From Candidatus Levyibacteriota bacterium (GTDB lineage: Bacteria; Patescibacteriota; Microgenomatia; Levybacterales; UBA12049), in contig CAWBPM010000002.1 in assembly GCA_963790825.1 (NCBI GenBank), positions 97,702-161,701 on the forward strand: a stretch of DNA of 64,000 nt, read 5' to 3'. A model generated the notes under the pieces. That model was not told where the DNA came from. It made no database searches and saw only the letters and a program-made list of their open reading frames with translations. Positions 5,053-62,983 of the stretch are shown here, piece after piece. How positions within the stretch are numbered: position 1 is the stretch's first letter; each line of letters opens with the position of its first letter. Position numbers and translations under genes: made by a program.

Positions 5053-5101
5053 AAAAACAGTATACGTATTTTCGAGGCTAAATACAAGCAGATGATAATC
5101 T

Positions 5102-6106
5102 TTAAGCGGCCTTGGGTAGAATCGATGTGTAATAGGTTAATCGGGGGTTATCTGACTGAAAAGCAGCTTTAATTTCATCCGAATAGTTTCTTTTTTCTAA
5201 AATTTCGTTACGTCTGCCTGGATCAAATTCTTCATAAAGCTCAAGGATTGTTTCAAAATGTTCAATCTCTAATACCGCTTGAAAAGCTAATTTGCCAATT
5301 CTTGTGTCTCCAAGTTGTTCATTGAGTATTTTATTTACTTCTTCTCTTCCGCTTGCTCCGATGAGTCGTTCAACAGGTATCCTTTCAATATCCCTTCTTA
5401 TTTTAATAAGTTTTACCTCATCATCTGCCAGTTGTTTTAATTCATTAAATATATCAAAAGCAACATTACGGGGATCCTTAGCCAAGTATTCTTTTGCAGC
5501 AGTGACATTTCCCTCTAATGCTGGATCTTCCGAGGTTAACATTGCAATAGACGTAGAAAGCGAAAAATCAGGATCCTGCATTTGTTTAACTTCTTGTGCT
5601 TGTGCCATCGCCTGGCGAATTTGTGCCATTTGTTCACTAGTAGCCCCAAAGATCCATGTTACTGTCTCATCTGCCGCTCCTGTTTGTCGAGTGACGAATA
5701 TTTGGACACTATCGGGCAAGTTCAGCTGAGAAATTGCACTCGTTATACGGCTGGAGCTTTCCAGGATTACAGTGTCGCCAAATTCTCTGTCGTACTTGGT
5801 ATTCGCAGATTTCAGATTATCAGCATCTGCATAAATGAGTGCCCAGCTTGTACCTAAACGAAGTACATTAGATAGTTCGGAAGCCACTCTGATACGCATA
5901 CCATCCTCCTCAATGGGAAGACCAGTAAGAGGATCAATATGGGTTTGTTCAGGTAAATCATTTCGAAAAAAACGTGGTGGAATAGTAAGATTTATACCCT
6001 TACCACGTACCTTATCAATCCAAGGATTTAGTCTTTGCTGCTCTTGAGAAAATGATATTAAATCCAGCGAAGAAGAATCCGCTTCGCTATGCTCAGGGCT
6101 GTCCAT
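5102..6106 (-). CDS. GGDEF-domain protein with degenerate active site
   Basis: DPLTGLP...ALIYADADNLKSANTKYDREFGDTVI matches the start and A-site region of diguanylate cyclase GGDEF domains. The GG(D/E)EF position reads RQTGAADE, so it is probably non-catalytic. Confidence 0.45.
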   Translation of the reverse strand: MDSPEHSEADSSSLDLISFSQEQQRLNPWIDKVRGKGINLTIPPRFFRNDLPEQTHIDPLTGLPIEEDGMRIRVASELSNVLRLGTSWALIYADADNLKSANTKYDREFGDTVILESSSRITSAISQLNLPDSVQIFVTRQTGAADETVTWIFGATSEQMAQIRQAMAQAQEVKQMQDPDFSLSTSIAMLTSEDPALEGNVTAAKEYLAKDPRNVAFDIFNELKQLADDEVKLIKIRRDIERIPVERLIGASGREEVNKILNEQLGDTRIGKLAFQAVLEIEHFETILELYEEFDPGRRNEILEKRNYSDEIKAAFQSDNPRLTYYTSILPKAA

Positions 6107-39112: not shown

Positions 39113-39514
39113 GTGAACGATATGGATACAACTGCATATAAGGGTTTATTTTTAGAAACTGCCGAAGAATATGTACAAAAACTTGTGACAAATAGTAAGC
39201 TACTTTCTGCCAACTTTACTGATAGGGAAGCGATCTCGGCATTATATATTGCTGCACATTCGATAAAAAGTCAAAGTCTGATGATGGGATATACCGCAAC
39301 TGGTATTCTCAGCGGCACGCTTGAACAAATATTTAAAGAAGCGAAAGAAAGAAAAATACAGATCACCCTTTCGCAAATGAATCTTCTTTTTATCTGCATT
39401 CAAAGTCTAAAAGAATCGATTGAGAATATTAAGGCCAAAGACAAAGAAAAAGATGTGTCGGAAAATTACAAAAAACTTGAAGAGGTATTTCATATACAAT
39501 TAATAGGAAAATAA
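39113..39514 (+). CDS. Hpt (histidine phosphotransfer) domain protein
   Basis: AAHSIKSQSLMMGYTATGILSGTLEQIFKEA matches the Hpt HxxKG(S/A) helix motif. 133 aa. Directly upstream of a receiver gene and pilB. Confidence 0.5.
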   Translation: MNDMDTTAYKGLFLETAEEYVQKLVTNSKLLSANFTDREAISALYIAAHSIKSQSLMMGYTATGILSGTLEQIFKEAKERKIQITLSQMNLLFICIQSLKESIENIKAKDKEKDVSENYKKLEEVFHIQLIGK

Positions 39515-39515
39515 T

Positions 39516-39884
39516 ATGCGAATTTTACTAGTAGAAGACGATACTTTTTTCCAGAAATTCTACACAATGAAACTTACTGAAGCTGGTTTTCAGGTAGAAT
39601 TGGCTGAAAACGGAGCGGTAGGACTCGAAAAAGTTGGAGTTTCTCCGTATCCGGATTTAATTGTTTTGGACCTTGTTATGCCGGTAAAAGATGGATTTGA
39701 GTTTTTACGCGATTTTAAAAGTATAAAAATTCAGAAAAACATTCCAATTCTTGTATTCTCGACTTTGGGGCAAGAACAAGATATTACTAAAGCGAAAGAA
39801 ATGGGCGCAACGGACTATGTTAGCAAGAGTTTTTTTGATTTTGACAAATTACTTAAAAAGATTAATGATTTAATTAACAAATAA
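39516..39884 (+). CDS. response regulator receiver-only protein (CheY/PilH-like)
   Basis: MRILLVEDD...DLIVLDLVMPVKDGFEFL...VFSTLG...K shows the receiver Asp pocket and phospho-Asp context. 122 aa, no output domain. Confidence 0.75.
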   Translation: MRILLVEDDTFFQKFYTMKLTEAGFQVELAENGAVGLEKVGVSPYPDLIVLDLVMPVKDGFEFLRDFKSIKIQKNIPILVFSTLGQEQDITKAKEMGATDYVSKSFFDFDKLLKKINDLINK

Positions 39885-39901
39885 TACGAAATTACCTGCC
39901 T

Positions 39902-41584
39902 ATGCTAATTACGAGTGAAGAGCTGAAAAAATTAGTTTTGAACACCAAGTTACTGGAAGAAAAAGAGTATCTGGTAATTGAAGAGTTTGCGAAAAATTCA
40001 AATGTCGATCCGGCTGAAGCTTTAGTTCAAAAAGACGTTATTTCTGATGAAAATTTAGGAATAATGATCGCGGACTTTTTAAAAGTACCTTTTGTAACTC
40101 TGTCTAAGCTTTCCATCCCTGAAGATGTTATTCGTATCGTCCCCGAAAGAATTGCCAGAAAGCACAAAGTAATTCCCTTCGCCAAGGATGAGTCGGGAAT
40201 AAAACTCGCGATGGTTGATCCGTCCAATAAAGAACTTGTAGATCTAATCTCAATGAAAACCGGAGATAAAGTTATCCCGCATCTGGCGACAGAGCGTGAT
40301 ATTTATAACACACTTAGAGTTTATCGAAAAGATTTACAAAAGACATTTCAGGATCTACTTACGGAAGAATTGAGAAAATCGGGAAGCATCGTTAATGAAG
40401 CACCGGTTGAGAAGATTGTTGACATGATCATAGACTATGCATATCAGGATAAAGCTTCGGATATTCATATCGAACCTGAAGAAAAAGATTCATTGGTTCG
40501 CTTTCGCATTGATGGCATACTTCACGATGTTCTGATTATACCCAAAGCACTTCATGAACAAGTAACAACCCGTATAAAAGTATTGTCCCGTCTTAGAACG
40601 GATGAACATATGGCTCCGCAAGACGGCAAACTTAGGATTAAATTAGAAGAGGAAGAGCTTGATATTCGTGTGTCAATTCTACCGATTTCGGGCGGAGAAA
40701 AGACAGTCATGCGACTTCTCGCTTCACGCTTCGGGCAATTTTCACTTCTGGATTTAGGTATGAATGAGAAAGATTTGAAAAAAGTAACGAACGCGTTCAG
40801 CAAATCATACGGCATGGTACTTTCAACAGGCCCGACAGGTTCGGGAAAAACGAGCAGTATTTACGCAATCTTAAAAATTCTTAATACCCGGGAAAAAAAT
40901 ATTACAACAATTGAAGATCCGGTTGAGTACAGGATCAAGGGTGTTAATCAGATCCAGGTAAATTCGAAAACTAATTTAACTTTTGCTAACGGTTTAAGAT
41001 CAATTTTAAGACAGGATCCGAACATTGTTTTCGTGGGAGAAATACGTGATAACGAAACTGCGGGAATTGCCGTAAATGCTGCTTTAACCGGACATTTAGT
41101 ATTATCAACACTGCATACCAATGATGCTGCTACTGCTCTGCCCCGTTTGACAGACATGCAGGTAGAGCCGTTTCTGGTTGCTTCAACTGTTAATGTTATT
41201 ATTGGTCAAAGACTGGTTAGAAAAATCTGCGAAATGTGCAAAGCAACAACAATGGCAAGTCGCTCGGAACTGGTAAAAAATCTATCCGAAGAAGTAGTAT
41301 CGAAGCATTTTGACCAGAAAGAAGAACTACGCGTCTTTAGGGGTCAGGGATGTAAAGTTTGCCACACTACAGGATATGCCGGACGTATCGGAGTATTTGA
41401 AGTTTTAGAGGTGAGTAAAACCATCAGAGCGCTTATTGCGAAAAAAGCTGATGCGGACATGATCGTGCAGAAAGCGATGGAAGAAGGGATGACCACTATG
41501 CTTGATGACGGACTTGAAAAAGTTGCCCGGGGAATAACGACTATTGAGGAAGTATTCAGAGTAACGAAAGTAGAAAACGCATGA
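39902..41584 (+). CDS. pilB: type IV pilus assembly ATPase PilB (GspE family)
   Basis: N-terminal GSPII_E_N/MshEN-like domain, Walker A GPTGSGKTSS, Asp box, His box and a Cys-x2-Cys...Cys-x2-Cys-type zinc motif (CEMCKA...CKVCHTTG). 560 aa. Confidence 0.85.
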   Translation: MLITSEELKKLVLNTKLLEEKEYLVIEEFAKNSNVDPAEALVQKDVISDENLGIMIADFLKVPFVTLSKLSIPEDVIRIVPERIARKHKVIPFAKDESGIKLAMVDPSNKELVDLISMKTGDKVIPHLATERDIYNTLRVYRKDLQKTFQDLLTEELRKSGSIVNEAPVEKIVDMIIDYAYQDKASDIHIEPEEKDSLVRFRIDGILHDVLIIPKALHEQVTTRIKVLSRLRTDEHMAPQDGKLRIKLEEEELDIRVSILPISGGEKTVMRLLASRFGQFSLLDLGMNEKDLKKVTNAFSKSYGMVLSTGPTGSGKTSSIYAILKILNTREKNITTIEDPVEYRIKGVNQIQVNSKTNLTFANGLRSILRQDPNIVFVGEIRDNETAGIAVNAALTGHLVLSTLHTNDAATALPRLTDMQVEPFLVASTVNVIIGQRLVRKICEMCKATTMASRSELVKNLSEEVVSKHFDQKEELRVFRGQGCKVCHTTGYAGRIGVFEVLEVSKTIRALIAKKADADMIVQKAMEEGMTTMLDDGLEKVARGITTIEEVFRVTKVENA

Positions 41585-42630
41585 AAACAGAACGAGTCAG
41601 CCTTTCCGGCAATGATAAAATCGGTTTTATCAGTAGTCTTACTACTATGCTTGGGGCGGGCATTCCAATTCTTGAAACAGTAGATTCGCTCCTTGAAGAC
41701 GCGAAAGGCGGACAGAAAAAGCTACTCGAAACCATGCGGGCAGATTTAACGCAGGGACAACATATCTATTTTACGTTTGCAAAGTTTCCCTTAATTTTCG
41801 ATAAAGTAACCATCAATATTATTCGTGCGGCAGAAGAGGCGGGGACATTGGATGTTACGCTCACGGATGTAAAAAACAATATTCAAAAGGAAATGGAATT
41901 TACCGATAGAATTCGCTCGGCGCTTATTTATCCTATGTTTATCGCCTTTATATTTGTTGCGGTACTTTTAATGATATTAATTGTTGTCGTCCCAAAAATT
42001 AGCACAGTATTTGTACAATTGAAAGTGAAGTTGCCATTACCGACAAAAATTCTCATATTTTTGTCAAATATGTTATTGAACTATACCATACCGGTAATTA
42101 TCGGCTTTATTGTTTTTACTATCCTGGCGATTTACATTTATAAAAGAGAAAAAGGATTCATCATTCAAACGCTAACATCTCTGCCGGTTATTTCAAATTT
42201 GATGAAAGAAATTGATTGGAACCGTTTTACCAGAAGCATGTTTTTACTTCTCAGCGCCGGTATTCCGATTACCAGTGCCTTGGAAATGACACAAGACGTG
42301 GTAACCAGAAAAGAAATAAAAAAAGCAATTAAGCACGCAAGCGATGTAGTATTTACGGGAAAAAAATTGTCGGAAGGCTTAAAAGATGAAAAGAATGTAA
42401 TTTCACCGATTGTCATCAGAATTATTGAAGCGGGAGAGAAAACCGGATCTTTGGATAAGGCTATGCAGGATGCCGCAGATTTTCTTGAATATCAGATATC
42501 CGGAAACTTAAAAGCAGCTACCGCGTTAATTGAACCGATGATGCTGGTTATTGTCGGGGTGCTTATCGGGGGAATGATGATCGCAATCATCGGTCCAATT
42601 TACAGTATGATAGGGCAAATAAGTCCATAA
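41581..42630 (+). CDS. pilC: type IV pilus inner-membrane platform protein PilC (GspF family)
   Basis: Two T2SS-F-like repeats with TM helices. 4-nt overlap with pilB. 349 aa. Confidence 0.75.
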   Translation: MKTERVSLSGNDKIGFISSLTTMLGAGIPILETVDSLLEDAKGGQKKLLETMRADLTQGQHIYFTFAKFPLIFDKVTINIIRAAEEAGTLDVTLTDVKNNIQKEMEFTDRIRSALIYPMFIAFIFVAVLLMILIVVVPKISTVFVQLKVKLPLPTKILIFLSNMLLNYTIPVIIGFIVFTILAIYIYKREKGFIIQTLTSLPVISNLMKEIDWNRFTRSMFLLLSAGIPITSALEMTQDVVTRKEIKKAIKHASDVVFTGKKLSEGLKDEKNVISPIVIRIIEAGEKTGSLDKAMQDAADFLEYQISGNLKAATALIEPMMLVIVGVLIGGMMIAIIGPIYSMIGQISP

Positions 42631-42634
42631 TCCT

Positions 42635-43150
42635 ATGCAGATACATCATTCGTTTTCCTCTTCCAAACAAGCCGGATTTCCCCCGGTTCAATCGGGGTTT
42701 ACTCTGGCGGAATTAATATTAGTTATGTTGATTTTTACTACTCTTGTCGGAATTGCGACCATTAACTTGGCGCATATCCAACGCCGATCATCTATGACCA
42801 GCAGCATAAACATGCTGGCAACCGACATGAAAGAACAGCAAGTAAAAGCAATGGTTGGGGATACCGAAAGCAGAGCAAGTCCCGATAATTACGGTATTTA
42901 TTTCGGTACAAGTTCTTATACGCTTTTTCATGGCACCTACTCTGCAACTGATAGCGCAAATACCGTTATTCCAATCGATGCTACATTGCATTTTGCGACT
43001 CCCGGAGCCAGTATTATTTTTACCAGAGAGAGTGGTGACGTGTTGAATTATAGTATAAATGCTAACCTGATCATAATTCAGGATATAACGAATGGAGAAG
43101 TGACTAAGCTTAAGTTTAATAAATTCGGTGCGATAATAGGAACATATTAA
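42635..43150 (+). CDS. prepilin-type N-terminal cleavage/methylation domain protein (minor pilin/pseudopilin)
   Basis: Class III signal QSGFTLAELILVMLIF (G|FTLxE). Confidence 0.65.
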   Translation: MQIHHSFSSSKQAGFPPVQSGFTLAELILVMLIFTTLVGIATINLAHIQRRSSMTSSINMLATDMKEQQVKAMVGDTESRASPDNYGIYFGTSSYTLFHGTYSATDSANTVIPIDATLHFATPGASIIFTRESGDVLNYSINANLIIIQDITNGEVTKLKFNKFGAIIGTY

Positions 43151-43153
43151 ATT

Positions 43154-43672
43154 ATGAAAAATTTTCTTTTCATTTCGAGTCATGATTATTTGAAAGGCTT
43201 TACTATTGTTGAATTCCTTATTTATATGGGAATACTTGTTATTTTACTTACTGCTTTAACTAGTGTTTTTACCTCAATTCTCGATGTATCTTCAGAGTCT
43301 CAGGCAAGTTCCGCAGTAGAGAGAAACGGAAAGTATATTCTGGCAAAACTGGCGTATGATATTCATCAGGCGACCGGTTCCGGTGTTTTGTCCCCGGTTT
43401 TGGGAAGTTCTTCAGGTAGCCTTAAACTTTCTCTCGGAGGTATAACAAGCACTTACAGCACGAATAATAGCGGCAATTTACAAGTAACATCAAATCTGGG
43501 CACGGATTTTCTAAGCAGCTATGATGCCAGTGTTTCCGGCTTAACATTTACCACATTGGGTAATAGCGGAGGAAAAAATTCAGTACAAATTAGCTTTACT
43601 TTGACTAGTTTGATGCAGCGAATATCCGGTAACGAAACAGCAAATTTTTCAACAACGGTTGGAACCAGATAA
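43154..43672 (+). CDS. prepilin-type N-terminal cleavage/methylation domain protein (minor pilin/pseudopilin)
   Basis: KGFTIVEFLIYMGILVILL class III signal. Ser/Thr-rich body. Confidence 0.6.
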   Translation: MKNFLFISSHDYLKGFTIVEFLIYMGILVILLTALTSVFTSILDVSSESQASSAVERNGKYILAKLAYDIHQATGSGVLSPVLGSSSGSLKLSLGGITSTYSTNNSGNLQVTSNLGTDFLSSYDASVSGLTFTTLGNSGGKNSVQISFTLTSLMQRISGNETANFSTTVGTR

Positions 43673-43679
43673 TTAATAT

Positions 43680-44078
43680 ATGCAAGAAAAAAATTTAATT
43701 AACAGTAATCAAAAGGAAGGGGGACAAGCGCTCATTACCTTGCTTTTTTTTGTAATCATTGCCATAACTATAACTTCGGCATCAGTTGTGGTATTAATCG
43801 CAAACAGCACCTCCGCGACGAAATACGAGGAAGGAATCAGGGCATTTTATGTAGCGGAAGGTGGAGCGGAAAACGCGGTTCTTCGATTACTGAGAGATCC
43901 TACTTATACAGGTGAAACATTGACAATTTCCGATGGAACTGCAACGATATCTGTAAGCGGGTCCGGTCCTTTTACAATTACGTCAAAAGGCGTTGTTGGA
44001 AATTTTACAAGAACAGTTCAAGTAAGCGCTGCCTACGTGAATAATATATTAAGCATTACTTCCTGGAAGGAAATTTAA
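43680..44078 (+). CDS. pilus-associated protein with N-terminal hydrophobic helix (PilX/pseudopilin-like, non-canonical leader)
   Basis: GGQALITLLFFVIIAITITSASVVVLIA hydrophobic segment without the G|FTLxE consensus. Located inside the minor-pilin run. Confidence 0.35.
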   Translation: MQEKNLINSNQKEGGQALITLLFFVIIAITITSASVVVLIANSTSATKYEEGIRAFYVAEGGAENAVLRLLRDPTYTGETLTISDGTATISVSGSGPFTITSKGVVGNFTRTVQVSAAYVNNILSITSWKEI

Positions 44079-44080
44079 CA

Positions 44081-45196
44081 ATGAGTAAGGGAATTATCTA
44101 TTTACAAAAAGAACAATTTGATTTATATCTCAACGATCAACAAAAAATCTTTACCTGCCAATTTACAAAAGATCTGGTAAATTACATGGAAGTAATTAAT
44201 AAAGAAGCGTTTGAAAATCTTATTACCTCATTTATCACGACGAATAAACTGCAACCGGCAAATCTCATTATTGTTTTAGCAAATTCTATAGTTTTTACAA
44301 AAGAAATCACAAATCCTCAACCAACTCCAAACGATGCAAAATCTGCTCCTGATAAATTAAAGTTAATTGCAGAAGAAAAGGCCACGAAAGATAGAGAGGG
44401 ATTATTGATCCAACAATTTATTGACAACATACCCTTTGCCGAAGTAAGTCATAAAATTATTTCTCTCCCGACCGGAAAAAAAGTAATTGCCGCCAATACG
44501 GATTTATATGACAGAATTAAAAATGTTTTTGCAAAATCAGGATTTATTATAGAAGCAGTAGCACCTATCGCAGTTTTAGATGCCAGCATCAGTGCACAAC
44601 CAAATTTTTCCCTGCAAATGGGGCAGCTTATGCTTGGGAAATATGACATATTGAGACAAAATAGTTTGGTGGTTAATTATCAGAATGAATTAATAAAATC
44701 CGGTAACAAAAATAAACATGCAGTGGGAAAAAGTACGAATAAACGAGCCTTTATTCTTTCCGGAGTTTTGGGGTTACTACTTCTTGTTCTGGGAGTCATG
44801 GTATATATGACCTATTTTGCTTCACAAACAACGTCTAAAAAACCTTTACCCGGTGCTTTAACTCCGGCTTCCGCCAGTCCCACCGGCCTACCGGTTGCAT
44901 CGGGATCGGCACAAGTTATTCCAGATAACTCGGGTGTTACTATTATTGCAACAGAAGGGGAGGATAGTCTTTCTACCACGCTTAGAGAAAATCTCACTTC
45001 TTTAGGGTTTACCAATGTTAGCTCAGTCAGCTCAGGACTTACCAGTATTCCTCGGACAACAATTTCTTTTACATCAAGTACATCTGCCGATGTAAAAGTT
45101 AAAATAGTAAATGCTGTACAAGCATTATCACCCGAAGCCGTGGTCGCTCCGGATATTAACAGTAGCGGTATTACTATTAATTTATCTAATAAATAG
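44081..45196 (+). CDS. pilus assembly protein, PilM-N-terminal-like cytoplasmic domain fused to PilN-like TM/periplasmic part (tentative)
   Basis: About 210 cytoplasmic residues starting GIIYLQKEQFDLYL (PilM-like start), one TM helix (AFILSGVLGLLLLVLGVMVYM), then a Ser/Thr/Pro-rich periplasmic tail. Sits between the pseudopilins and the major pilin. Confidence 0.3.
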   Translation: MSKGIIYLQKEQFDLYLNDQQKIFTCQFTKDLVNYMEVINKEAFENLITSFITTNKLQPANLIIVLANSIVFTKEITNPQPTPNDAKSAPDKLKLIAEEKATKDREGLLIQQFIDNIPFAEVSHKIISLPTGKKVIAANTDLYDRIKNVFAKSGFIIEAVAPIAVLDASISAQPNFSLQMGQLMLGKYDILRQNSLVVNYQNELIKSGNKNKHAVGKSTNKRAFILSGVLGLLLLVLGVMVYMTYFASQTTSKKPLPGALTPASASPTGLPVASGSAQVIPDNSGVTIIATEGEDSLSTTLRENLTSLGFTNVSSVSSGLTSIPRTTISFTSSTSADVKVKIVNAVQALSPEAVVAPDINSSGITINLSNK

Positions 45197-45199
45197 CTT

Positions 45200-45766
45200 C
45201 CTTTATTTTCCCTCTTGACAATTAGGAAAAGGATATGATTTACTAAATGCAGAGATATGAAAACAACTGCCCCGATAAATAAACTAGCTAAAGGTTTTAC
45301 CCTCATCGAGCTCTTAGTTGTTATCGGCATTTTAGCAATTCTTTTGGCAATCACCTTAATCGCAATTAATCCGGCCAGACAATTCTCCCAGGCAAATAAT
45401 ACAAAAAGAAGCAGCGATGTGAATGCTATTCTTAATGCCGTCAATCAGTATATGGCAGATAATAAAGGTGCTCTTCCCACAGGTATTAGTACGACAGCCC
45501 AGACGATTAACGGAGTAGATTTTGGAGCCATGTGCACTGCATTGGTTCCTACATATATAGCCGCACTTCCGGTAGATCCATTATCTAATGCAAATGCGGT
45601 ACAGTCTACAGATTGCACGAGTACTACATGGAATACAGGATACGTAGTACAGCAGTTAACAGGTGGCAGCAATAGGCTTACGGTATCCGCACCGGGAGCA
45701 GAGCTGGGGGCCACTATCTCCGTAACCAGATAAAGAGTTTCTCCTTATTAATTTAATTATTATTAA
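45200..45766 (+). repeat. 567-bp perfect direct repeat, copy 1 (pilin promoter + pilin gene + 33 nt 3' flank)
   Basis: Identical base-for-base to 48076-48642 by direct comparison of the printed sequence. The flanks diverge immediately outside both ends. Confidence 0.85.
45257..45733 (+). CDS. pilA: type IV major pilin (prepilin with 13-aa leader, G|FTLIELLVV)
   Basis: MKTTAPINKLAKG|FTLIELLVVIGILAILLAITLIAINP class III signal. 158 aa, with two Cys near the C-terminus (disulfide loop). A TTGACA hexamer lies 35 nt upstream. Confidence 0.8.
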   Translation: MKTTAPINKLAKGFTLIELLVVIGILAILLAITLIAINPARQFSQANNTKRSSDVNAILNAVNQYMADNKGALPTGISTTAQTINGVDFGAMCTALVPTYIAALPVDPLSNANAVQSTDCTSTTWNTGYVVQQLTGGSNRLTVSAPGAELGATISVTR

Positions 45767-48075: not shown

Positions 48076-48642
48076 CCTTTATTTTCCCTCTTGACAATTA
48101 GGAAAAGGATATGATTTACTAAATGCAGAGATATGAAAACAACTGCCCCGATAAATAAACTAGCTAAAGGTTTTACCCTCATCGAGCTCTTAGTTGTTAT
48201 CGGCATTTTAGCAATTCTTTTGGCAATCACCTTAATCGCAATTAATCCGGCCAGACAATTCTCCCAGGCAAATAATACAAAAAGAAGCAGCGATGTGAAT
48301 GCTATTCTTAATGCCGTCAATCAGTATATGGCAGATAATAAAGGTGCTCTTCCCACAGGTATTAGTACGACAGCCCAGACGATTAACGGAGTAGATTTTG
48401 GAGCCATGTGCACTGCATTGGTTCCTACATATATAGCCGCACTTCCGGTAGATCCATTATCTAATGCAAATGCGGTACAGTCTACAGATTGCACGAGTAC
48501 TACATGGAATACAGGATACGTAGTACAGCAGTTAACAGGTGGCAGCAATAGGCTTACGGTATCCGCACCGGGAGCAGAGCTGGGGGCCACTATCTCCGTA
48601 ACCAGATAAAGAGTTTCTCCTTATTAATTTAATTATTATTAA
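48076..48642 (+). repeat. 567-bp perfect direct repeat, copy 2
   Basis: Identical to 45200-45766 (offset 2876 bp). Confidence 0.85.
48133..48609 (+). CDS. pilA: type IV major pilin, exact duplicate of 45257-45733
   Basis: Encoded protein identical over all 158 aa. Lies inside repeat copy 2. Confidence 0.8.
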   Translation: MKTTAPINKLAKGFTLIELLVVIGILAILLAITLIAINPARQFSQANNTKRSSDVNAILNAVNQYMADNKGALPTGISTTAQTINGVDFGAMCTALVPTYIAALPVDPLSNANAVQSTDCTSTTWNTGYVVQQLTGGSNRLTVSAPGAELGATISVTR

Positions 48643-48767
48643 TCCATTATTTATTTGTATTTTGTTTAATTTTATTTCTTATGAAGATAGCCTTTTTAAG
48701 TATACAACTTTCAAAATATTCCCTATTGACAAATAATTGAAAAAACTGATTAAATTAGTGCATAGAT

Positions 48768-49244
48768 ATGAAAACAACTGCCCCGATAAATAAACTAGCT
48801 AAAGGTTTTACCCTCATCGAGCTCTTAGTTGTTATCGGTATTTTGGCAGTATTACTGGCAATTACTTTAGTTGCCATCAATCCGGCCAGACAATTTTCCC
48901 AGGCAAATAATACAAAACGAAGCAGTGACGTAAACTCCATTCTGGATGCAATTAATCAGTACATGGCAGATAATAAAGGTGCTCTTCCCACAGGTATTAG
49001 TACAACTGCCGCAACAATTAATGGGACGGGCTTTACAGCTCTCTGTAGCGCTTTAGTACCTACTTATATAGCCGCTCTTCCGACTGATCCATTATCGAAT
49101 AATTCTGCCGTACAGTCCAGTAGCTGTACAAGTACAACATGGAATACAGGATACGTAGTACAGCAGTTAGTAGGAGGAGGTAATAGGGTAACTGTTTCTG
49201 CTCCTATGGCTGAGCTTAGTGCAACTGTTTCAGTAACGAGATAG
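48768..49244 (+). CDS. pilA: type IV major pilin, divergent third paralogue
   Basis: Same leader and N-terminal helix (MKTTAPINKLAKGFTLIELLVVIGILA). About 30 substitutions concentrated in the central/C-terminal variable region. Own TTGACA-N17-ATTAAAT promoter-like sequence upstream. Confidence 0.8.
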   Translation: MKTTAPINKLAKGFTLIELLVVIGILAVLLAITLVAINPARQFSQANNTKRSSDVNSILDAINQYMADNKGALPTGISTTAATINGTGFTALCSALVPTYIAALPTDPLSNNSAVQSSSCTSTTWNTGYVVQQLVGGGNRVTVSAPMAELSATVSVTR

Positions 49245-54313: not shown

Positions 54314-54697
54314 ATGGCAAGAATTTTAGTTGTCGAAGATGACCTTTTTATCCGCGAATTATATGTAGAAACATTAACCTCCGAAAAATATGAAGTGGAA
54401 TACGCGGTTGATGGGCAAGATGCATTTAAAAAAATTAAGCAGGGAGGGTACGATCTTATTCTGCTGGATATTATTATGCCCAAAATGGATGGACTAACTG
54501 TTATGAGAAAAATTGCCAAAGACCCCCCGCAAAAGCCAAATAAATTAGTAATTTTTCTGACAAACCTCGACGATTCGGATGAGATAAGGCAGGCACTTGA
54601 GCTGGGTAACGGATACCTCATAAAAAGCCAGTTAACTCCGGCCGATTTATTAAATGAAGTAAAAATGGATCTGGAGAAACTTCCTGCCGCTTCTTAA
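54314..54697 (+). CDS. response regulator receiver-only protein
   Basis: MARILVVEDD...DLILLDIIMPKMDGL...IFLTNL receiver motifs. 127 aa. Confidence 0.7.
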   Translation: MARILVVEDDLFIRELYVETLTSEKYEVEYAVDGQDAFKKIKQGGYDLILLDIIMPKMDGLTVMRKIAKDPPQKPNKLVIFLTNLDDSDEIRQALELGNGYLIKSQLTPADLLNEVKMDLEKLPAAS

Positions 54698-57601: not shown

Positions 57602-58300
57602 TTAAATCTCAAGCAATAAAAAGTCAATTGCGCTGCTGAGAGGAGTAAGAAGCGTACCTGTTTTTTGAGCGAGGTCAAGCTCAAAAAGCTTTTGATAAAT
57701 TGCTTTAAGTTCGGAAGAAGAGAATGCTTTTGCCTGTCGCTCTAATTTTCCTCTTTGCCAGGGGGCAAGCCTTTTTACTTCCTCAATAGCCTCTTCGGTT
57801 TCTTCCCGAAGCGCAAGAAGCAAACGGAATTGACGAATCAGCATAAAAAAAACAATCTCTTCCTGATTGGTTTTAAGCAGATCCTTAAAAAGTGTCAGCA
57901 TTATTTTGTGATTTTTCGGTTTTATGCTGTCTAAAAAAACGAACAATGTTTTCGGATAGTGAAAATTTTTACAACTAGCTTCTTTCCAAAAAACGATTGA
58001 CCTCTTATCTATTTCTTTTCCTTCCCAAAGGTATATATCAGTGTCTTTTGCGCTTTTCTGTATCTGCTCTTTAATCGCATCCAGCTCCTTGCCGGTTTTT
58101 CGTTTGGATAACAGCAGCTCGATAAAAATGCCGCCTGAGGAAGAGAAAAGATCACTTCCGCCGGCAGCTTGGATAAGATCGGTGAGCGTCATTTTTTCAC
58201 CATCCAGGGATACGTTTTTCCCGTCCTGCTCCTTTATAGATAAATAAAACTTTCTCGATGTTACGATGTCTTCCCCATGAATAATAGTAAGCATAATCAA
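57602..58300 (-). CDS. holA: possible DNA polymerase III delta subunit (short form)
   Basis: N-terminus IIHGEDIVTSRKF resembles the holA start (YLLYGEE..L). The rest is helical with a delta-like layout. 232 aa is short for the family. Call is from memory of family patterns only. Confidence 0.35.
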   Translation of the reverse strand: MIMLTIIHGEDIVTSRKFYLSIKEQDGKNVSLDGEKMTLTDLIQAAGGSDLFSSSGGIFIELLLSKRKTGKELDAIKEQIQKSAKDTDIYLWEGKEIDKRSIVFWKEASCKNFHYPKTLFVFLDSIKPKNHKIMLTLFKDLLKTNQEEIVFFMLIRQFRLLLALREETEEAIEEVKRLAPWQRGKLERQAKAFSSSELKAIYQKLFELDLAQKTGTLLTPLSSAIDFLLLEI

Positions 58301-58680
58301 TGGTTTGCTGTTTTTTTCTTATATTCCTTAAAAAGCCTACCGGCCAGAGTATCCAGATGTCTTGCTCTGGTTCTATGCGGAAGGAGAGCGCCGGAAAAAT
58401 TTTTGGGGATATGTAAAATCTCATGAATAAGTACTTTTTTCTTTTGGTCTTCGTCAAGACGGTCGTAATACTTTGTTAATACCTCGATTACATAGGCAGG
58501 TTCTACACTTAGAGCATCTTGGAAGATTTTCGGAAATCCCCAGGTTCTGGCATATGCCCGCGCTTTTGAGCCTGAGGTACGGTAACAGAAGATTCTGTCC
58601 ATATTAATATGCGGCAAGTCCAGAATTGCCAAAATTTTTATAAGGTCTTGCCTAACATCGGGCGCGTTATTCCATTCCAT
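58297..58680 (-). CDS. putative zinc metallopeptidase (HExxH; SprT/DUF45-like)
   Basis: KKKVLIHEILHIPKNFSGALLPH contains HEILH plus a downstream His. Confidence 0.35.
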   Translation of the reverse strand: MEWNNAPDVRQDLIKILAILDLPHINMDRIFCYRTSGSKARAYARTWGFPKIFQDALSVEPAYVIEVLTKYYDRLDEDQKKKVLIHEILHIPKNFSGALLPHRTRARHLDTLAGRLFKEYKKKTANH

Positions 58681-58686
58681 ATATGA

Positions 58687-59862
58687 CTAAAGTTTCATAA
58701 TCCAGGCGAAGGTAGATTCCAACACTCCGGTTATTGAATAGCGTGGTTTTTTCTCTCCAACTTCCGTGGGAAAGGTTTTAATAGTATATACTTTTTTCCC
58801 GGATGTTTGCACACCGAGAACTTGCTCATTTGCGGACGGAGTTGCTAATAACGGATCACCTTTGGGTTTTACCAGGCTTGCAAAAGCCAGATACTCTTTG
58901 CTTGGATTACCATTCGCATCGAGAAAAGAAAATTTTCCAAATACTCCGCCGGCTTTCAGAAGAAAAGGAGTTATAGCGACGATTCCCGGATCTGACCAGA
59001 TAGTTTGAAAAGCCTGCGCGTAATAGCTTGCGCGTTGACTGTCAGATACCCCGTCACCCGACCAGCCGGTTTCTGTTATAAACACAGGTAATTTTTTATT
59101 ACTCATGCTTTCCAGAAGTTCCCTTTCATAGATAAAGCTTCCGATATTTTCATCTGTTGCAGTGGACGGAGGTTGCGTAAAACCCGGGTTTGGATAAGAA
59201 TGACTCGCTATTCCGTCAATTTGATTGAATATTCCGGGCACCGCTTGATTCATAGCCTCATAATAATCATATTCATTCATGTACAAATTTGGCTGATTTG
59301 GCGCTGCATTATCCATGCCAGCGCTGATTATAAAAAAGTCAGGGTTTCTGGATTTAAAAACAGTGACAGCGAAACTAAGAATTTGTGCATATTCCTGAGG
59401 ATTTGTCGATCCTCCCCATTCGTCTCGTCTGTTTACCTCATTAAAAACAATAACATAGCGATTTTTAGTCGGCCAATTCAGGGAACTCAGAAAATTAGCA
59501 AAATCAATAACATCATAGGAAGTAGGTTTTCTCCACAACTCTGTATTAAAATAGTCTCCTTCAGTTGCCAGGCGGATAATCGGAATAAGATGATATTTTC
59601 TACAGTTGTCCATGAAACTTTGCCATTTAAGCAAATCTTTATCTCCGGCTTGAATCGGAATAGTTACGTATCCCCAATCACCGCCACTGGTATTCACCAA
59701 GGCTGCCGCATCTTTAAGTTCAATGGGATTTAAGATATGTATTCCGAATTTGTTATTTGTTACCTGTTGAGGATCAACTATTGCAAAAACAAAAGAAACA
59801 CTAGACTGAAAAAGAAAAAAAATAAATAACGCTGCTAATAAACAATTTTGCAGAGGCTTCAT
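58687..59862 (-). CDS. secreted glycoside-hydrolase-like protein (clan GH-A TIM-barrel suspected)
   Basis: N-terminal signal peptide (LLAALFIFFLFQSSVSFVFA). VIVFNEVNRRDEWGG resembles the NE(P) acid/base motif of GH-A enzymes. 391 aa. Confidence 0.35.
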   Translation of the reverse strand: MKPLQNCLLAALFIFFLFQSSVSFVFAIVDPQQVTNNKFGIHILNPIELKDAAALVNTSGGDWGYVTIPIQAGDKDLLKWQSFMDNCRKYHLIPIIRLATEGDYFNTELWRKPTSYDVIDFANFLSSLNWPTKNRYVIVFNEVNRRDEWGGSTNPQEYAQILSFAVTVFKSRNPDFFIISAGMDNAAPNQPNLYMNEYDYYEAMNQAVPGIFNQIDGIASHSYPNPGFTQPPSTATDENIGSFIYERELLESMSNKKLPVFITETGWSGDGVSDSQRASYYAQAFQTIWSDPGIVAITPFLLKAGGVFGKFSFLDANGNPSKEYLAFASLVKPKGDPLLATPSANEQVLGVQTSGKKVYTIKTFPTEVGEKKPRYSITGVLESTFAWIMKL

Positions 59863-59960
59863 AGGTTATTTATTATACCATTTTTATAGTGAAAACTATG
59901 TGGTGAGTTGAAAAAATAAACCAATTGTAAGTAATTGTTAGATATTGTATTATAAGAGAG

Positions 59961-62198
59961 ATGAATGATCTACCTGAACTTTTAACACTGCGTGAGGCAA
60001 GTATTGTACTTAAAGTTCATCCAAACACGCTAAGACTTTGGGATGAGAAAAATATTCTGAAAGCAATACGGATTGGACAAAGAAAAGTACGTAGATATAG
60101 AAAAAAGGATATATTTAAGCTGCTGGAAGGAAATCAGAATAGTAAAAAACGCGACGACAAATCACAAGAGGCTATTCCTAAGCGGCAAGCTCTCGACAAT
60201 CTGGCAAATTATAAAGCAATAATTTTTTCTTCCCATGATGCAATTATTGGAAAAACACCGGACGGCATAATCACGAGCTGGAATCCTGCTTCTGAAAAAC
60301 TATACGGGTACACGGCAGCGGAAATTATTGGTAAATCAATTCTGACCATTTATCCTAAAGGACAAAAACAGGAGTTTTTGGAAATTATGCGAAAAATTAG
60401 ATCCGGAGAAAGAATTGATCACTACCAAACAACTAGAGTACGAAAAGATGGAAAAAAGATACATGTATCGGTGAGTATTTCGCCGGTTAAAAATCAAGAA
60501 GGAGTAATTGTAAATGTTTCGACAATAGCCAGAGACATAACCAAGCAGAAGCAGGTAGAAGAAAAGCTAAAGTTTCTAACTGCAGTTACAAAAGAGTTAG
60601 CCACATCAGTTCACAGTAGAGTAACGCTTAATAAAGTCCTTAGTGTTATTGTGCCATTTCTGGCCGATTATTGCAGAATAGCAATAGTAAATCACAAACA
60701 AACAGTTAAAGAGATTATTGTCGTCCATAAAGATCCGAAAAAACTTACTTTGGTAAAAAATCTCAATAAAAAATATAAGAATTTTCGCGAAACTTCCATG
60801 GGCATTCGTGGTCTGCTAAGAACGGGAAAGCCTCAGCTGTTGACTACTTTAAATAAGAAAATCCTTGAAAAATACCCGGTTCCTGATGATATACAAAAGG
60901 TTGTAAAAAAATTAAACCTGAAATCATACATGGGAATTCCACTTATCGTTCGGGGGAAGATAATTGGGGCAATGACCTTTTCATCTATTTCCGAGGACCG
61001 GCTCTATACTAATGAAGATTTGGAATTAGCGCAAGAGATCGGGAGACAAATTGCTCTTATGATCGATAATAACAGACTATACCAGGAGGCACTTCGGGAA
61101 ATAAGAGATCGGAAAAGGATTGAGGAAAAAATAAAACAGAACGAAGAGCGGTTCCGTGTTCTATTTGAGCACAGTGCGGATGGTATTACTATACTTGACA
61201 AGTCGGGAAAAAGAATATACGCAACACCCTCCAGAAAAAATATTCTCGGCTGGGACCCAAAGGAAGGTTATAAAGATAATATTTTCAAAATTCTCCACCC
61301 GGATGATGTAGTGAGAATAAAAAAAGATTTTGCGCAAGTACTCCAAAATCCCAAAGAAAGCATCACAACTACCTTCCGGGTTAGGCATAAAGAAGGGGGT
61401 TGGGTATGGGTGGAAGCTACGGGAACAAACTTACTGCATATCCAGATTATCGGGGGGGTGGTTATTAATTATCGGGATATTACTGAAAGAAAACAGATAG
61501 AAAATAGGAAAGATGATTTTATCAGTATGGCAAGTCATGAACTAAAAACTCCGGTGACATCAGTGAAAGCTTTTGCTCAAATACTGCAAAAACTCCCCGA
61601 GATACAGAATACAAAATCAAAAGTATACCTTGAAAAGATGGATACGCAGATTAATAAACTTACGAAATTAATTATTGATCTTTTGGATGTATCCAAAATT
61701 CATAAAGGCAAACTGGACTTTCGAGAGGAGAAATTTGATTTCGATCAGCTGGTTGAGGAAACCGTCGATACTATTTCGCAAACCGTATCGACCCACAGGA
61801 TACTGATTGAAGGGAAGACAAATAGCAAAATTATCGGTGATACTGATCGGATTAGTCAGGTGATTATTAACCTTTTAACAAACGCTGTTAAATACTCCCC
61901 GAAGGCGGATGAAGTTATCGTGCGATTGGCAAGAAGTAACAATACGGTAATCATGGCAGTCCAGGATTTCGGTATCGGAATCCCCGTGAATCATCAACAA
62001 AAAATATTTGAGCGTTTTTACCGAGTAAATGAATCTGAAGACAGATCTTTCGCGGGACTGGGAATCGGCCTTTATATCTCGTCTGAAATTATCAGTCGTC
62101 ATGGAGGAGAGATGTTTGTAAAAAGTAAAACAGGCGAGGGGTCAATATTTTCTTTTATATTGCCAATAAAACAAAAAAAGACACTAAAAACTGCGTGA
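59961..62198 (+). CDS. multi-sensor histidine kinase with N-terminal MerR/excisionase-type HTH (HTH-PAS-GAF-PAS-HisKA-HATPase)
   Basis: HTH: LTLREASIVLKVHPNTLRLWDEKNILKAIRIGQRKVRRY. PAS regions at ~85-200 and ~395-510, with a GAF-like segment between. H-box FISMASHELKTP. N/G boxes LLTNAVKYSP and GIGLYISSEIISRHGGEMFV. 745 aa, no TM helix. Confidence 0.7.
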   Translation: MNDLPELLTLREASIVLKVHPNTLRLWDEKNILKAIRIGQRKVRRYRKKDIFKLLEGNQNSKKRDDKSQEAIPKRQALDNLANYKAIIFSSHDAIIGKTPDGIITSWNPASEKLYGYTAAEIIGKSILTIYPKGQKQEFLEIMRKIRSGERIDHYQTTRVRKDGKKIHVSVSISPVKNQEGVIVNVSTIARDITKQKQVEEKLKFLTAVTKELATSVHSRVTLNKVLSVIVPFLADYCRIAIVNHKQTVKEIIVVHKDPKKLTLVKNLNKKYKNFRETSMGIRGLLRTGKPQLLTTLNKKILEKYPVPDDIQKVVKKLNLKSYMGIPLIVRGKIIGAMTFSSISEDRLYTNEDLELAQEIGRQIALMIDNNRLYQEALREIRDRKRIEEKIKQNEERFRVLFEHSADGITILDKSGKRIYATPSRKNILGWDPKEGYKDNIFKILHPDDVVRIKKDFAQVLQNPKESITTTFRVRHKEGGWVWVEATGTNLLHIQIIGGVVINYRDITERKQIENRKDDFISMASHELKTPVTSVKAFAQILQKLPEIQNTKSKVYLEKMDTQINKLTKLIIDLLDVSKIHKGKLDFREEKFDFDQLVEETVDTISQTVSTHRILIEGKTNSKIIGDTDRISQVIINLLTNAVKYSPKADEVIVRLARSNNTVIMAVQDFGIGIPVNHQQKIFERFYRVNESEDRSFAGLGIGLYISSEIISRHGGEMFVKSKTGEGSIFSFILPIKQKKTLKTA

Positions 62199-62380: not shown

Positions 62381-62983
62381 TTATAAAATTACCTCAGTTT
62401 CCCCTTTTATATATTGACGAATTAACAAACTAATCAAAGTTTGATAGGCTATACCGTTTCTTTTAGCCTTAGCTTTAACTTTAATAAGATCCTCTAAATT
62501 AACCCTTAGAGTAATACTTTTAGTTTCTTGCAACTGCCTGAAGTTTTTAGCTGCTTCCAGAAACATTTCTTTAGTTGCTTCTAAATTAGGTGCATTCACG
62601 AATTCACCCTTGCCTATTGCATCCTCTATCTCCTGTTCATATTTGTTGAGTACTGCATTCATTTTTTGACACCCCCCCTTCATAAATTTATTTGTTAAAA
62701 TTCTACTTGGATAGATTGTTTTAAGAAAGATTACTTTCTTTTTAGGATCTATAATATAAGGTACAGCGTAGGCATAATTTTTTCTTTTTATTACCAATAT
62801 TCTTTGGTGAGCATATTTTTCATTACTATGTCTTAGGTCACCTAGTATTTTTTTTTCTTCGATAGCGACAATAACATCCTCAAATCCTATTTCTCTAGTT
62901 TCCTTTAACAATAAGTTTTTCTCTTCTGAGAATTCAATTCTATAGCCTTTGTAGCTCACAGAAACATTATACTCGCTGTACAT
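62381..62983 (-). CDS. BrnT-like toxin (DUF497, RelE fold) fused in-frame to BrnA-like antitoxin (RHH)
   Basis: N-terminal ~95 aa: YRIEFSEEKNLLLKETREIGFEDV...AHQRILVIKRKNYAYAVPYII...KVIFLKTIYPSRILTNKF matches the BrnT pattern (FEWDExKN...KHGVSFEEA...). C-terminal ~95 aa: ITLRVNLEDLIKVKAKAKRNGIAYQTLISLLIRQY matches BrnA. The junction runs through a C7/G7 homopolymer at 62667-62673. Confidence 0.55.
   Translation of the reverse strand: MYSEYNVSVSYKGYRIEFSEEKNLLLKETREIGFEDVIVAIEEKKILGDLRHSNEKYAHQRILVIKRKNYAYAVPYIIDPKKKVIFLKTIYPSRILTNKFMKGGCQKMNAVLNKYEQEIEDAIGKGEFVNAPNLEATKEMFLEAAKNFRQLQETKSITLRVNLEDLIKVKAKAKRNGIAYQTLISLLIRQYIKGETEVIL

Follow-up and report, generated by a model that had tools for sequence, protein, structure and literature searches.

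The gene located at 59961..62198 on the + strand of the window (the whole 64-kb stretch of DNA that was analysed) starts with ATG and encodes a sensor histidine kinase of 745 aa, as had been claimed in the earlier note. From its N-terminus, and always on the + strand, the protein is composed of a BldC-like MerR/HTH_17 winged helix-turn-helix (HTH) with the recognition helix HPNTLRLWD (aa 6-56, 59976..60128), delimited by profile, homology and fold; a charged, non-conserved linker of low identity (aa 57-82, 60129..60206); a first PAS domain, PAS1 (aa 83-197, 60207..60551); a GAF domain (aa 222-369, 60624..61067); a second PAS domain (aa 396-490, 61146..61430); the HisKA dimerisation/phospho-acceptor domain (aa 517-582, 61509..61706); and the HATPase_c catalytic domain (aa 626-737, 61836..62171). 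In the Pfam scan, the N-terminus matched MerR_1 at aa 9-52 (23.7 bits, above the cut-off of 21.6) and HTH_17 at aa 7-58 (26.5 bits, just under the cut-off of 27). The same scan placed PAS at aa 83-193, GAF_2 at aa 222-369, PAS_3/PAS_8 at aa 396-490, HisKA (PF00512, 53.5 bits versus a cut-off of 26.9) and HATPase_c (PF02518, 96.5 bits), and gave no match to a Response_reg or AraC domain in the chain. PAS1 is 46-59% identical to PAS domains from many phyla. No transmembrane segment was found, the most hydrophobic 19-mer being part of the GAF core and containing D, R, N and H; the Pfam scan and the hydrophobicity thus agree with the domain order and the soluble character originally read from the sequence. 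The HisKA domain contains the H-box SHELKTP, with the codon of His526 at 61536-61538, and HATPase_c contains the N (NLLTNAVKY from 637), G1 (DFGIGI from 669), F (FERFYR from 683) and G2 (GLGIGL from 699) boxes. Judged from its sequence, the kinase is catalytically equipped, with the H, N, G1, F and G2 boxes all intact. Among the named equivalog models considered (PnpS, PhoR, WalK and AtoS, NCBIfam), all stayed below their cut-offs (PnpS 257 versus 400, PhoR 242 versus 334, WalK 230 versus 725).

Concerning the start codon, an in-frame TAA lies upstream of the ATG, at 59928; the open reading frame is free of internal stops, and codons 2 to 139 include no start codon. The next canonical starts fall within PAS1, a TTG at codon 140 and an ATG at codon 143, so the HTH cannot be skipped without truncating this domain. 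The possible downstream start, which the earlier note had asked to be checked, would not leave PAS1 whole, and the HTH is within the translated protein. An identical 745-aa protein is recorded in NCBI, in ENA and in the Logan assembly of a public sequencing run, and PF12728.14 is present among the precomputed domains of the identical protein. The genes around the kinase point to a genome of the Patescibacteria (CPR).

The N-terminal helix was studied by homology and by fold. Residues 1-80 of the kinase match hundreds of proteins of 55-75 aa (E about 1e-17, 60-75% identity), which make up an abundant family of stand-alone proteins of ~60 aa from CPR bacteria; the N-terminal 55 aa of the kinase are a relative of this family. 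Two of the stand-alone relatives, checked directly, scored 48-49 bits on HTH_17, and on account of the homology to stand-alone HTH proteins the HTH assignment of the kinase is secure despite its marginal Pfam score. In an alignment of 51 sequences, the kinase retains all the invariant columns (18 out of 18), including those of the recognition helix and of the RRY wing. Modelled with AlphaFold2, aa 1-80 showed a pLDDT >90 over aa 10-50, with the beta-alpha-alpha-beta-beta-alpha topology of the winged-helix fold, and a pLDDT of 54-61 in the linker. The MerR_1 match spans only positions 2-44 of the 69 of the profile, and is followed by the low-confidence charged linker and then by PAS. The best Foldseek matches of the model in the PDB were the BldC-DNA complexes 6ama/6amk (34% identity, target TM 0.81-0.88), which superimposed with an rmsd of 1.1-1.7 Å for most chains and 3.2 Å for two; RacA, mycobacteriophage Xis and then the MerR N-domains came next. 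The best PDB match by sequence was also BldC (E 0.012). By sequence and by model, the N-terminus of the kinase is a real MerR/HTH_17-type winged helix. So, of the label 'HTH_17/excisionase-family' given earlier to the first ~55 residues, the HTH_17 part stands, with MerR_1 above its cut-off, homologues and a winged-helix model behind it, and the excisionase part does not, as TIGR01764 scored below its cut-off, no integrase was found over about 10 kb upstream and 4 kb downstream, and the closest structure is BldC.

The fusion of this helix to a kinase is not confined to the window. Among the 150 best representative clusters for the helix, at least seven more, formed at 50% identity, contain kinases of the form HTH-(PAS/GAF)n-HisKA-HATPase, and another five contain HTH-GAF proteins without a kinase transmitter. 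The stand-alone form of ~60 aa is the commonest by far, and the same helix occurs also in covalent arrays of 2-8 tandem copies. The motif HPNTLRxWD, the mark of the stand-alone family, is common to the fused kinases and the HTH-GAF relatives, with HKNTLRxWD in two. The kinase P0336, from a related genome, is syntenic with that of the window, its locus running through PGM, holA, PhageMetallopep and a ~385-aa gene before the kinase. Across eight diverged kinases, the most conserved modules are the HTH (50-70% identity) and HisKA (45-59%), and identity is variable in the sensors (0-58%) and in the linker (7-34%). JGI labels a comparable protein, whose HTH_17 is of another subtype, as 'PAS domain S-box-containing protein/excisionase family DNA binding protein'. 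The architecture was described at first as uncommon; from these sequences it is unusual but not unique, as it recurs in other genomes. A genome-collection scan with aa 1-200, tried as a census of fusions, was swamped by the conserved PAS pattern DGIITSWN, and the fusion candidates L071, L076 and L079 were discarded, as the upstream sequence of each is other than HTH. In the literature, no description was found of HTH-fused or DNA-binding histidine kinases, or of such a design in CPR two-component systems. The sole literature co-mention of HTH_17 and histidine kinase concerned photoglobin architectures.

Immediately upstream of the kinase gene, at 59925..59954 (+), there are three direct repeats phased by 10 bp, TTGTAAGTAA, TTGTTAGATA and TTGTATTATA, which are, from their sequence, a candidate operator for the HTH of the kinase itself. 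The triple pattern is unique within the 64-kb window, with 0.00 occurrences expected in shuffles. On both strands, the window and eight loci, about 144 kb together, contain the pattern TGT-N7-TGT-N7-TGT four times, and in every case it is located 14-41 nt upstream of the start codon of an HTH-kinase; three of the four occurrences come from five loci retrieved after the hypothesis had been fixed. In 80 loci of the stand-alone form, 16 triple matches were found within 150 nt upstream versus 3 elsewhere. After dereplication of the helix-family loci, TGK triples at 10-bp spacing were present upstream in 18 of 64, while spacings of 8, 9, 11 or 12 bp gave 0-1 loci and six control trinucleotides gave at most 2 loci each. 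The trinucleotide autocorrelation peaks at lag 10 and, for the kinases, also at lag 20. Outside the upstream regions, the same loci, about 350 kb in all, contain the triple only as four background matches. In short, the phased TGT/TGK repeats, newly found here, are nearly confined to the upstream regions of genes that encode the helix. Not every member of the helix family has this cis-element, the TGT triple being absent from three of three HTH-GAF loci, one of which has GTTAA three times at 10-bp spacing. Two alternative descriptions of the repeat were rejected: the tighter core GTWA, three times at 10-bp spacing, was found in 3 loci only and missed the window, so the TGT/TGK description was preferred, and the 10-mer TGKTARGTAA, the consensus of the stand-alone genes, is absent from the window, where the unit is TTGTAAGTAA. 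The co-occurrence of helix and repeats is what ties one to the other; the helix probably binds these repeats.

It had also been suggested that the kinase could regulate adjacent pilus and glycosylation genes or the nearby BrnTA module. This suggestion was not sustained: within the 64-kb window, the triple repeat occurs only at the kinase promoter, two-unit versions are not enriched (7 versus 3.8 expected), and a search of it for further operator-like sites that could connect the kinase with the pilus, glycosylation or toxin-antitoxin genes gave nothing beyond chance. Moreover, the pilus genes are not adjacent to the kinase, as had been stated, but about 15-20 kb away.

The repeats overlap a predicted sigma-70-like promoter located by consensus scan at 59925..59953 (+), with the -35 hexamer TTGTAA at 59925-59930, a 17-bp spacer and the -10 hexamer TATTAT at 59948-59953. 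It has 9/12 consensus matches, and such sites are no commoner in the region than in shuffles; an alternative promoter-like site lies at 59847-59876. If used, the predicted promoter would start transcription at or beside the ATG, and the mRNA would have no leader or almost none. In an Rfam scan, the only matches were two tRNAs, with none at the kinase leader. Repeat 1 coincides with the -35-like hexamer, repeat 3 holds the -10-like one, and in the stand-alone genes one repeat unit contains TATAAT; for this reason, part of the conservation of the repeats could reflect promoter or leader rather than operator function.

As to possible partners of the kinase, a receiver-only response regulator of 127 aa without output domain, encoded at 54314..54697 (+; PF00072, 82.8 bits), is a candidate phospho-acceptor, and we infer a partnership of the kinase with it. 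A candidate phosphorelay branch lies at 39113..39884 (+), where a stand-alone Hpt (39113-39514) is followed by another receiver-only protein (39516-39884) and next by a pilB-like gene (39902-41584), so that the pair heads the pilB/pilC operon. No other histidine kinase was found in the 64-kb window, and it is only on this basis that the Hpt/receiver branch is provisionally connected to the kinase. The kinase is separated from the receiver genes by 5 and 20 kb, and neither these nor the Hpt gene are adjacent to it; receiver-only genes adjoin the kinase in two of eight related loci (L083 and L089). No output-bearing response regulator was found near the kinase. If the kinase is linked to the pilus genes, a phosphorelay is a more plausible route than transcriptional control.

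The reading that we favour, with a confidence somewhat better than even, is that the kinase binds its own promoter in the manner of BldC and signals by phosphotransfer to output-less receiver and Hpt proteins. Its N-terminus would have acquired a minimal winged helix of MerR type, a member of the abundant CPR family of ~60-aa stand-alone proteins. The kinase would dimerise via its HisKA helices, and the dimer would set its DNA-binding helices on successive direct repeats, head-to-tail like BldC; the covalent arrays of 2-8 helices fit such binding to adjacent direct repeats. Bound to the repeats, the kinase may regulate its own transcription, most likely repressing it. In parallel, it would phosphorylate the receivers 54314-54697 and/or 39516-39884, the latter together with the Hpt, in a phosphorelay with one branch at the head of the type IV pilus operon. 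Regarding the role of the helix, the state of the sensors may alter DNA binding, or the flexible linker may do no more than hold the kinase on DNA; the non-conserved sequence and low model confidence of the linker argue against a tight allosteric coupling between sensors and helix. The finding of the strict triple in only 18 of the 64 dereplicated loci counts against the autoregulation model.

Other interpretations have to be weighed. It is rather unlikely that the helix binds DNA but has its true targets elsewhere in the genome, the repeats being promoter or leader elements for RNA polymerase or the ribosome. Such an origin would account for the match of repeats 1 and 3 to -35 and -10 hexamers at a 17-bp spacer, and for the stand-alone consensus containing TGTATAAT with a third unit that often overlaps the ATG. 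It does not account so well for the exact 10-bp spacing and the near absence of the triple elsewhere in the 350 kb, and stand-alone and kinase genes differ in the register of the repeats with respect to start codon and -10-like box, a difference that a fixed promoter architecture would not predict. It seems improbable, on the other hand, that the helix does not bind DNA at all and is either a protein-protein module, co-assembling with paralogues or capping PAS1, or the functionless remnant of a recent fusion. The intact state of the 18 invariant residues, recognition helix and wing included, the position of the helix among the two most conserved modules of eight diverged kinases and the family cis-element kept upstream speak against this, even if the HTH_17 score is just below the cut-off, the linker is flexible and BldC-type domains make protein-protein contacts head-to-tail (PMC5859096).

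The two remaining alternatives concern the nature of the gene. That the gene belongs to a mobile element and its helix acts as an excisionase or recombination directionality factor is very improbable. In favour of this are the 'excisionase-type' character of the Pfam family HTH_17, phage Xis among the structural matches and a PhageMetallopep gene 1.3 kb upstream. Against it, TIGR01764 scored 17.9 versus a cut-off of 28.8, the gene calls over about 10 kb upstream and 4 kb downstream of the kinase include no integrase, the locus including PhageMetallopep is syntenic with the housekeeping genes PGM and holA in a related genome (L083), and the fusion partner is a sensor kinase. Hardly credible is a gene-calling or assembly artefact in which a sequencing error has joined a kinase gene to a separate small HTH gene. 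The predominance of the stand-alone form could suggest it; against it are the identical product in NCBI, ENA and Logan, the reading frame uninterrupted by stops or by starts before codon 140, and eight further relatives from different samples that carry the same fusion.

Beyond the favoured reading of a promoter-bound kinase that signals by phosphotransfer, it is possible, although only tentatively proposed, that there is a CPR family of DNA-resident histidine kinases, true one-component/two-component hybrids seated by the BldC-like helix on phased repeats and possibly co-polymerising with stand-alone paralogues, in which the state of PAS/GAF would control both operator occupancy and phosphotransfer to receiver and Hpt proteins without output. 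If this were true, the kinase itself would replace the DNA-binding response regulator in minimal genomes; all the receivers that lie near the kinase, whether in the window or at the two related loci (of eight) with such genes, are without output domain. Histidine kinases classically do not bind DNA, a task of the response regulator, and a kinase that did would represent a different wiring of bacterial signalling. To our knowledge, transcriptional regulation in CPR/Patescibacteria is almost uncharted, and the phased TGT(A/T)A repeats provide a concrete, cheaply testable operator hypothesis for the kinase and for the abundant small BldC-like proteins.

Among known systems, Streptomyces BldC is the closest solved relative of the helix by both PDB sequence and structure. 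On DNA, BldC forms head-to-tail multimers over AT-rich direct repeats (PMC5859096). The likeness extends to the stand-alone relatives, which are a winged helix only, without the coiled coil or effector domain of MerR, to the AT-rich direct repeats at the kinase promoter and to the conserved wing RRY. The differences are that the kinase is 745 aa long and has six further domains, its helix being fused to a 690-aa sensor kinase; that NCBIfam NF033787 gave 23.4 bits versus a cut-off of 77; that the BldC residues contacting bases and groove, K26, R30, K36 and H46, are N22, L26, I32 and V43 in the kinase, as read from the alignment; and that the repeats have the core TGT(A/T)A and a period of 10 bp, compared to AATTxxxx(C) and 9 bp in BldC. 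Since contact residues and repeat length differ, the BldC binding mode is an analogy only. Classical MerR regulators are more distant: the kinase lacks their C-terminal coiled-coil dimerisation helix and effector-binding domain, and has direct repeats on a 17-bp spacer instead of a palindrome in a 19-20 bp spacer. The CarH/LitR photoreceptors, CarH being among the structural matches, also join an N-terminal MerR-type helix to a sensory (B12-binding) module, but their output is DNA binding only, without kinase, and their oligomerisation is under B12 and light control.

With soluble PAS/GAF HisKA kinases of PhoR/PnpS/WalK-like core, the protein of the window shares HisKA and HATPase_c with all the catalytic boxes, and with helix-less kinases (P0002, P0014 and others) a PAS-GAF-PAS array 39-45% identical over 88-89% of its length; what it adds is the N-terminal DNA-binding domain, with no membrane anchor. 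With the one-component regulators HTH-GAF and HTH-GAF-GAF (P0252, P0270, P0285, P0342 and P0388) it shares an N-terminal helix followed by a variable linker and a sensor, as well as the recognition helix HPNTLRxWD (HKNTLRxWD in P0252); these have no kinase transmitter, and the protein of the window adds the phosphotransfer output. The hybrid two-component systems of Bacteroides (HTCS) combine kinase, receiver and AraC HTH in one polypeptide and are membrane proteins with a periplasmic sensor. The kinase described here resembles them in that one chain carries both a histidine kinase and a DNA-binding domain, which makes the line between one- and two-component classes indistinct, and differs from them in having no receiver, C-terminal AraC HTH, periplasmic sensor or transmembrane segments. 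The mark of a one-component system, a sensor and a DNA-binding domain in one polypeptide, is present as HTH plus PAS/GAF. So, on paper, and by its domain content, it can be said that the kinase is a one-component/two-component hybrid, as was proposed when the gene was first read.

The kinase ORF (59961-62198, + strand) encodes 745 amino acids. An in-frame TAA lies 33 nt 5′ of its ATG and the next ATG, GTG or TTG codons are codons 140 and 143, both within the first PAS domain, so the N-terminal segment is necessarily translated. This rules out a start downstream of the helix-turn-helix (HTH), which the earlier note had named as grounds against its reading. Pfam located MerR_1 at aa 9-52 above its cut-off (23.7 bits versus 21.6) and HTH_17 at aa 7-58 marginally below (26.5 versus 27), followed by PAS (aa 83-193), GAF (aa 222-369), PAS (aa 396-490), HisKA (aa 517-582) and HATPase_c (aa 626-737). 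The catalytic motifs were complete (H box with His526, N, G1, F and G2 boxes), and no credible membrane segment was found in the kinase. The structure described in the earlier note was right in all details, and this architecture can be taken as practically certain. The first PAS domain (aa 83-197, window 60207-60551) is of a subtype with the pattern …DAIIGKTxDGIITSWNPAAEKLYGY…, 46–59% identical to PAS domains of Thaumarchaeota, Verrucomicrobiota, Acidobacteriota, Chloroflexota, Bathyarchaeota and others, a cross-domain-of-life conservation unusually high for a PAS module.

The Pfam score of the kinase helix was by itself marginal. Residues 1-80 matched hundreds of proteins of 55-75 aa (E ~1e-17, 60–75% identity), some with source labels (excisionase-family, MerR, 'helix-turn-helix domain-containing protein'; Woesebacteria, Shapirobacteria, Moranbacteria, Lloydbacteria); two of them, tested on HTH_17, scored 48-49 bits. 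When 50 small relatives were aligned with the kinase, the latter retained 18 of the 18 invariant columns (E6, L7, L8, T9, L10, L17, H20, P21, N22, T23, L24, R25, W27, D28, A35, R37, G39, Y46). The AlphaFold2 model of aa 1-80 showed pLDDT >90 over aa 10-50 and a beta-alpha-alpha-beta-beta-alpha topology. Its top PDB structural matches were BldC bound to DNA (6ama, 6amk; 34% identity, target TM 0.81–0.88), ahead of RacA, a mycobacteriophage Xis and classical MerR N-domains; BldC was also the top PDB sequence match. The small-protein homology, the kept columns and the model with its BldC matches settle the HTH assignment despite the marginal Pfam score, and the domain is a BldC-like minimal MerR-type winged helix. 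A BldC orthologue was rejected (NF033787 score 23.4 versus a cut-off of 77). Of the HTH_17/excisionase-family label first proposed, the HTH_17-type helix held and the excisionase identity did not (TIGR01764 17.9 versus 28.8, and no integrase called within ~10 kb upstream or 4 kb downstream of the kinase).

An identical kinase protein is recorded in NCBI (751-kb contig), in ENA and in a Logan assembly of a public sequencing run; these records and the fused relatives reject a singleton or artefact. Searching aa 1-100 against 1.84 billion representative proteins (E up to 1e-3) gave 1051 relatives, and twenty longer proteins among the best 150 were scanned for domains. Seven of the twenty were HTH-(PAS/GAF)n-HisKA-HATPase kinases (P0267, P0307, P0336, P0359, P0374, P0377, P0382), five were HTH-GAF or HTH-GAF-GAF, and further fusions joined the HTH to a methyltransferase, a HAD hydrolase, a C5 DNA methylase or REC-GerE. 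The initial search had found P0011, a 736-aa HTH-PAS-PAS-GAF-kinase. The recognition helix HPNTLRxWD is common to the kinase and the GAF fusions (HKNTLRxWD in two). The Chloroflexi-like kinases P0039 and P0045 carry an HTH_17 of a different subtype, therefore the fusion there is independent. P0336 sits in a syntenic locus where, as in the window, PGM, holA and PhageMetallopep are followed by a gene for ~385 aa and, on the opposite strand, by the kinase; the neighbouring PGM proteins of the two genomes are 70% identical. Across the seven fused relatives the HTH (50–70% identity) and HisKA (45–59%) were conserved best, the sensors (0–58%) and linker (7–34%) poorly. The fused relatives, the synteny and the two conserved modules show a recurrent CPR design maintained by selection; what had been called an uncommon architecture recurs in CPR (the seven kinases and P0011). 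No description of an HTH-fused kinase was found in the literature.

Concerning the neighbourhood, the window PGM is 74–79% identical to proteins labelled Patescibacteria, Levybacteria and Saccharimonadales, its single closest match being labelled Methylomirabilota. Taken together, these matches assign the window to the CPR. In both genomes the 'putative phage metallopeptidase' gene (PF18894; window 58297-58680, − strand, and 4725-5138 of locus L083) adjoins the gene for the DNA polymerase III delta subunit, so it looks chromosomal and conserved, not prophage cargo. Divergent from the kinase, 58687-59862 (− strand) encodes a protein of 391 aa whose N-terminus has a hydrophobic, signal-like segment and which resembles GH5 cellulases only faintly; its ~382-aa counterpart in L083 does not adjoin the kinase.

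The 98-nt intergenic region common to both divergent genes contains, directly 5′ of the kinase ATG (59925-59954), three direct repeats phased at exactly 10 bp, namely TTGTAAGTAA, TTGTTAGATA and TTGTATTATA. The triple occurs once in the 64-kb window and in none of 100 shuffles. Similar phased units upstream of P0336, P0382 and P0011 were seen before the operator hypothesis was written down; five more HTH-kinase loci were fetched after it was recorded. TGT-N7-TGT-N7-TGT had only four occurrences on both strands of the window and eight loci (~144 kb), each of them in coding-strand orientation and 14-41 nt 5′ of the start codon of an HTH-kinase gene, and three of them in the newly fetched loci.

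The stand-alone family was examined in 80 metagenome loci, which had 16 TGT triples in the 150 nt preceding the helix versus 3 in the other ~608,000 positions. After dereplication (64 loci, 348 kb), TGT x3 at 10-bp spacing was upstream in 9 loci (4 background matches) and TGK x3 in 18 (17 background). Either motif at 8, 9, 11 or 12 bp was upstream in 0-1 loci (0-33 background), and each of six control trinucleotides x3 at 10 bp in at most 2 (1-24 background). Just 28% of the dereplicated loci have the strict triple upstream. Unbiased trinucleotide autocorrelation peaked at lag 10 (stand-alone genes 0.054, kinases 0.066, versus 0.020 for controls); kinases gave 0.070 at lag 20. The stand-alone consensus is TGTATAATAA, TGTTATCAAA, TGGTAAGTAA, then ~ten bases and the ATG; the units match those of the kinase genes exactly, but their order and register to the start codon differ. 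An element cTGTATAATAA-TGTTATCAAA-TGGTAAGTAA, ~ten bases before the start codon and ~20-70 nt upstream, is strongly conserved among the L090-L169 loci, where many stand-alone HTH genes of different metagenomes have it; gene callers sometimes begin the ORF at an ATG within AATGGTAAGT. The TGT triple was absent from the three HTH-GAF loci checked, one of which (L170) has GTTAA x3 at 10-bp spacing.

BldC binds AT-rich 9-bp direct repeats, AATTxxxx(C), by forming head-to-tail multimers that vary in length (PMC5859096). Tandem arrays of 2-8 HPNTLRxWD helices in one polypeptide occur in P0241-P0247 (P0243 has eight in 623 aa), and many other matches among the best 150 have 2-4 copies, judged by the number of matched stretches; such covalent arrays fit head-to-tail binding on repeats like those of BldC. 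The best reading is that the helix family recognises 10-bp-phased TGT(A/T)A units and commonly regulates its own genes, and that the kinase gene inherited the helix domain plus its operator. Autoregulatory binding of the kinase to these repeats is judged slightly more likely than not. The main rival, that repeat conservation is partly promoter sequence, is rather unlikely: repeat 1 can also be read as a −35-like TTGTAA and repeat 3, after a 17-bp spacer, holds a −10-like TATTAT, but the triple is almost missing from other promoters in ~350 kb of the same loci and its register to the −10-like box varies. Transcripts from this pair would start at the ATG or right next to it, whereas with a second promoter-like site (59847-59876) the repeats would fall in the leader.

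Kinase control of the adjacent glycosylation genes, of the pilus genes (15-20 kb off) or of the BrnA-like gene, suggested earlier, found no support, the triple being only at the kinase promoter; two-unit sites in the window were at chance level (7 versus 3.8 expected), none well placed. The BrnA-like ORF (62381-62983, − strand, 200 aa) resembles CopG/BrnA antitoxins weakly in its C-terminal third, under Pfam cut-offs, with no family match for its N-terminal ~130 aa; possible readings are a BrnT-BrnA toxin-antitoxin fusion and a merger of two genes.

No other histidine kinase was found in the 64-kb window, which encodes two receiver-only proteins (54314-54697 and 39516-39884) and a stand-alone Hpt (39113-39514). 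The genes for the Hpt and for the receiver-only protein at 39516-39884 lie directly 5′ of pilB-like (T2SSE + MshEN), pilC-like (T2SSF) and pilin-like genes. The operon that they head (39113-45733 and 48133-49244) goes on with genes for a PilB-like ATPase and a PilC-like platform protein and with several pilin-like (N_methyl) genes, an arrangement suggesting that in this CPR genome a phosphorelay feeds into a type IV pilus. In L083 and L089 the fused kinase gene is directly followed by a receiver-only gene, and none of the nine fused kinases had a DNA-binding response regulator next to it. These candidate partners, together with the missing adjoining regulator, led us to propose two outputs: phosphotransfer would go to output-less receiver/Hpt proteins, a branch possibly controlling the pilus motor, and the kinase's helix would supply the transcriptional output, at least on its own promoter.

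Compared to known kinds, the kinase would function as HisKA sensor kinases do, and its architecture is also that of one-component regulators in the BldC-like class. In membership tests it fell outside BldC proper, classical MerR and the excisionases, and also outside the named kinase equivalogs and the Bacteroides hybrid two-component systems. The most fitting description is an uncharacterised combination of two known kinds, recurring in CPR bacteria, that comes with a specific operator hypothesis open to testing.
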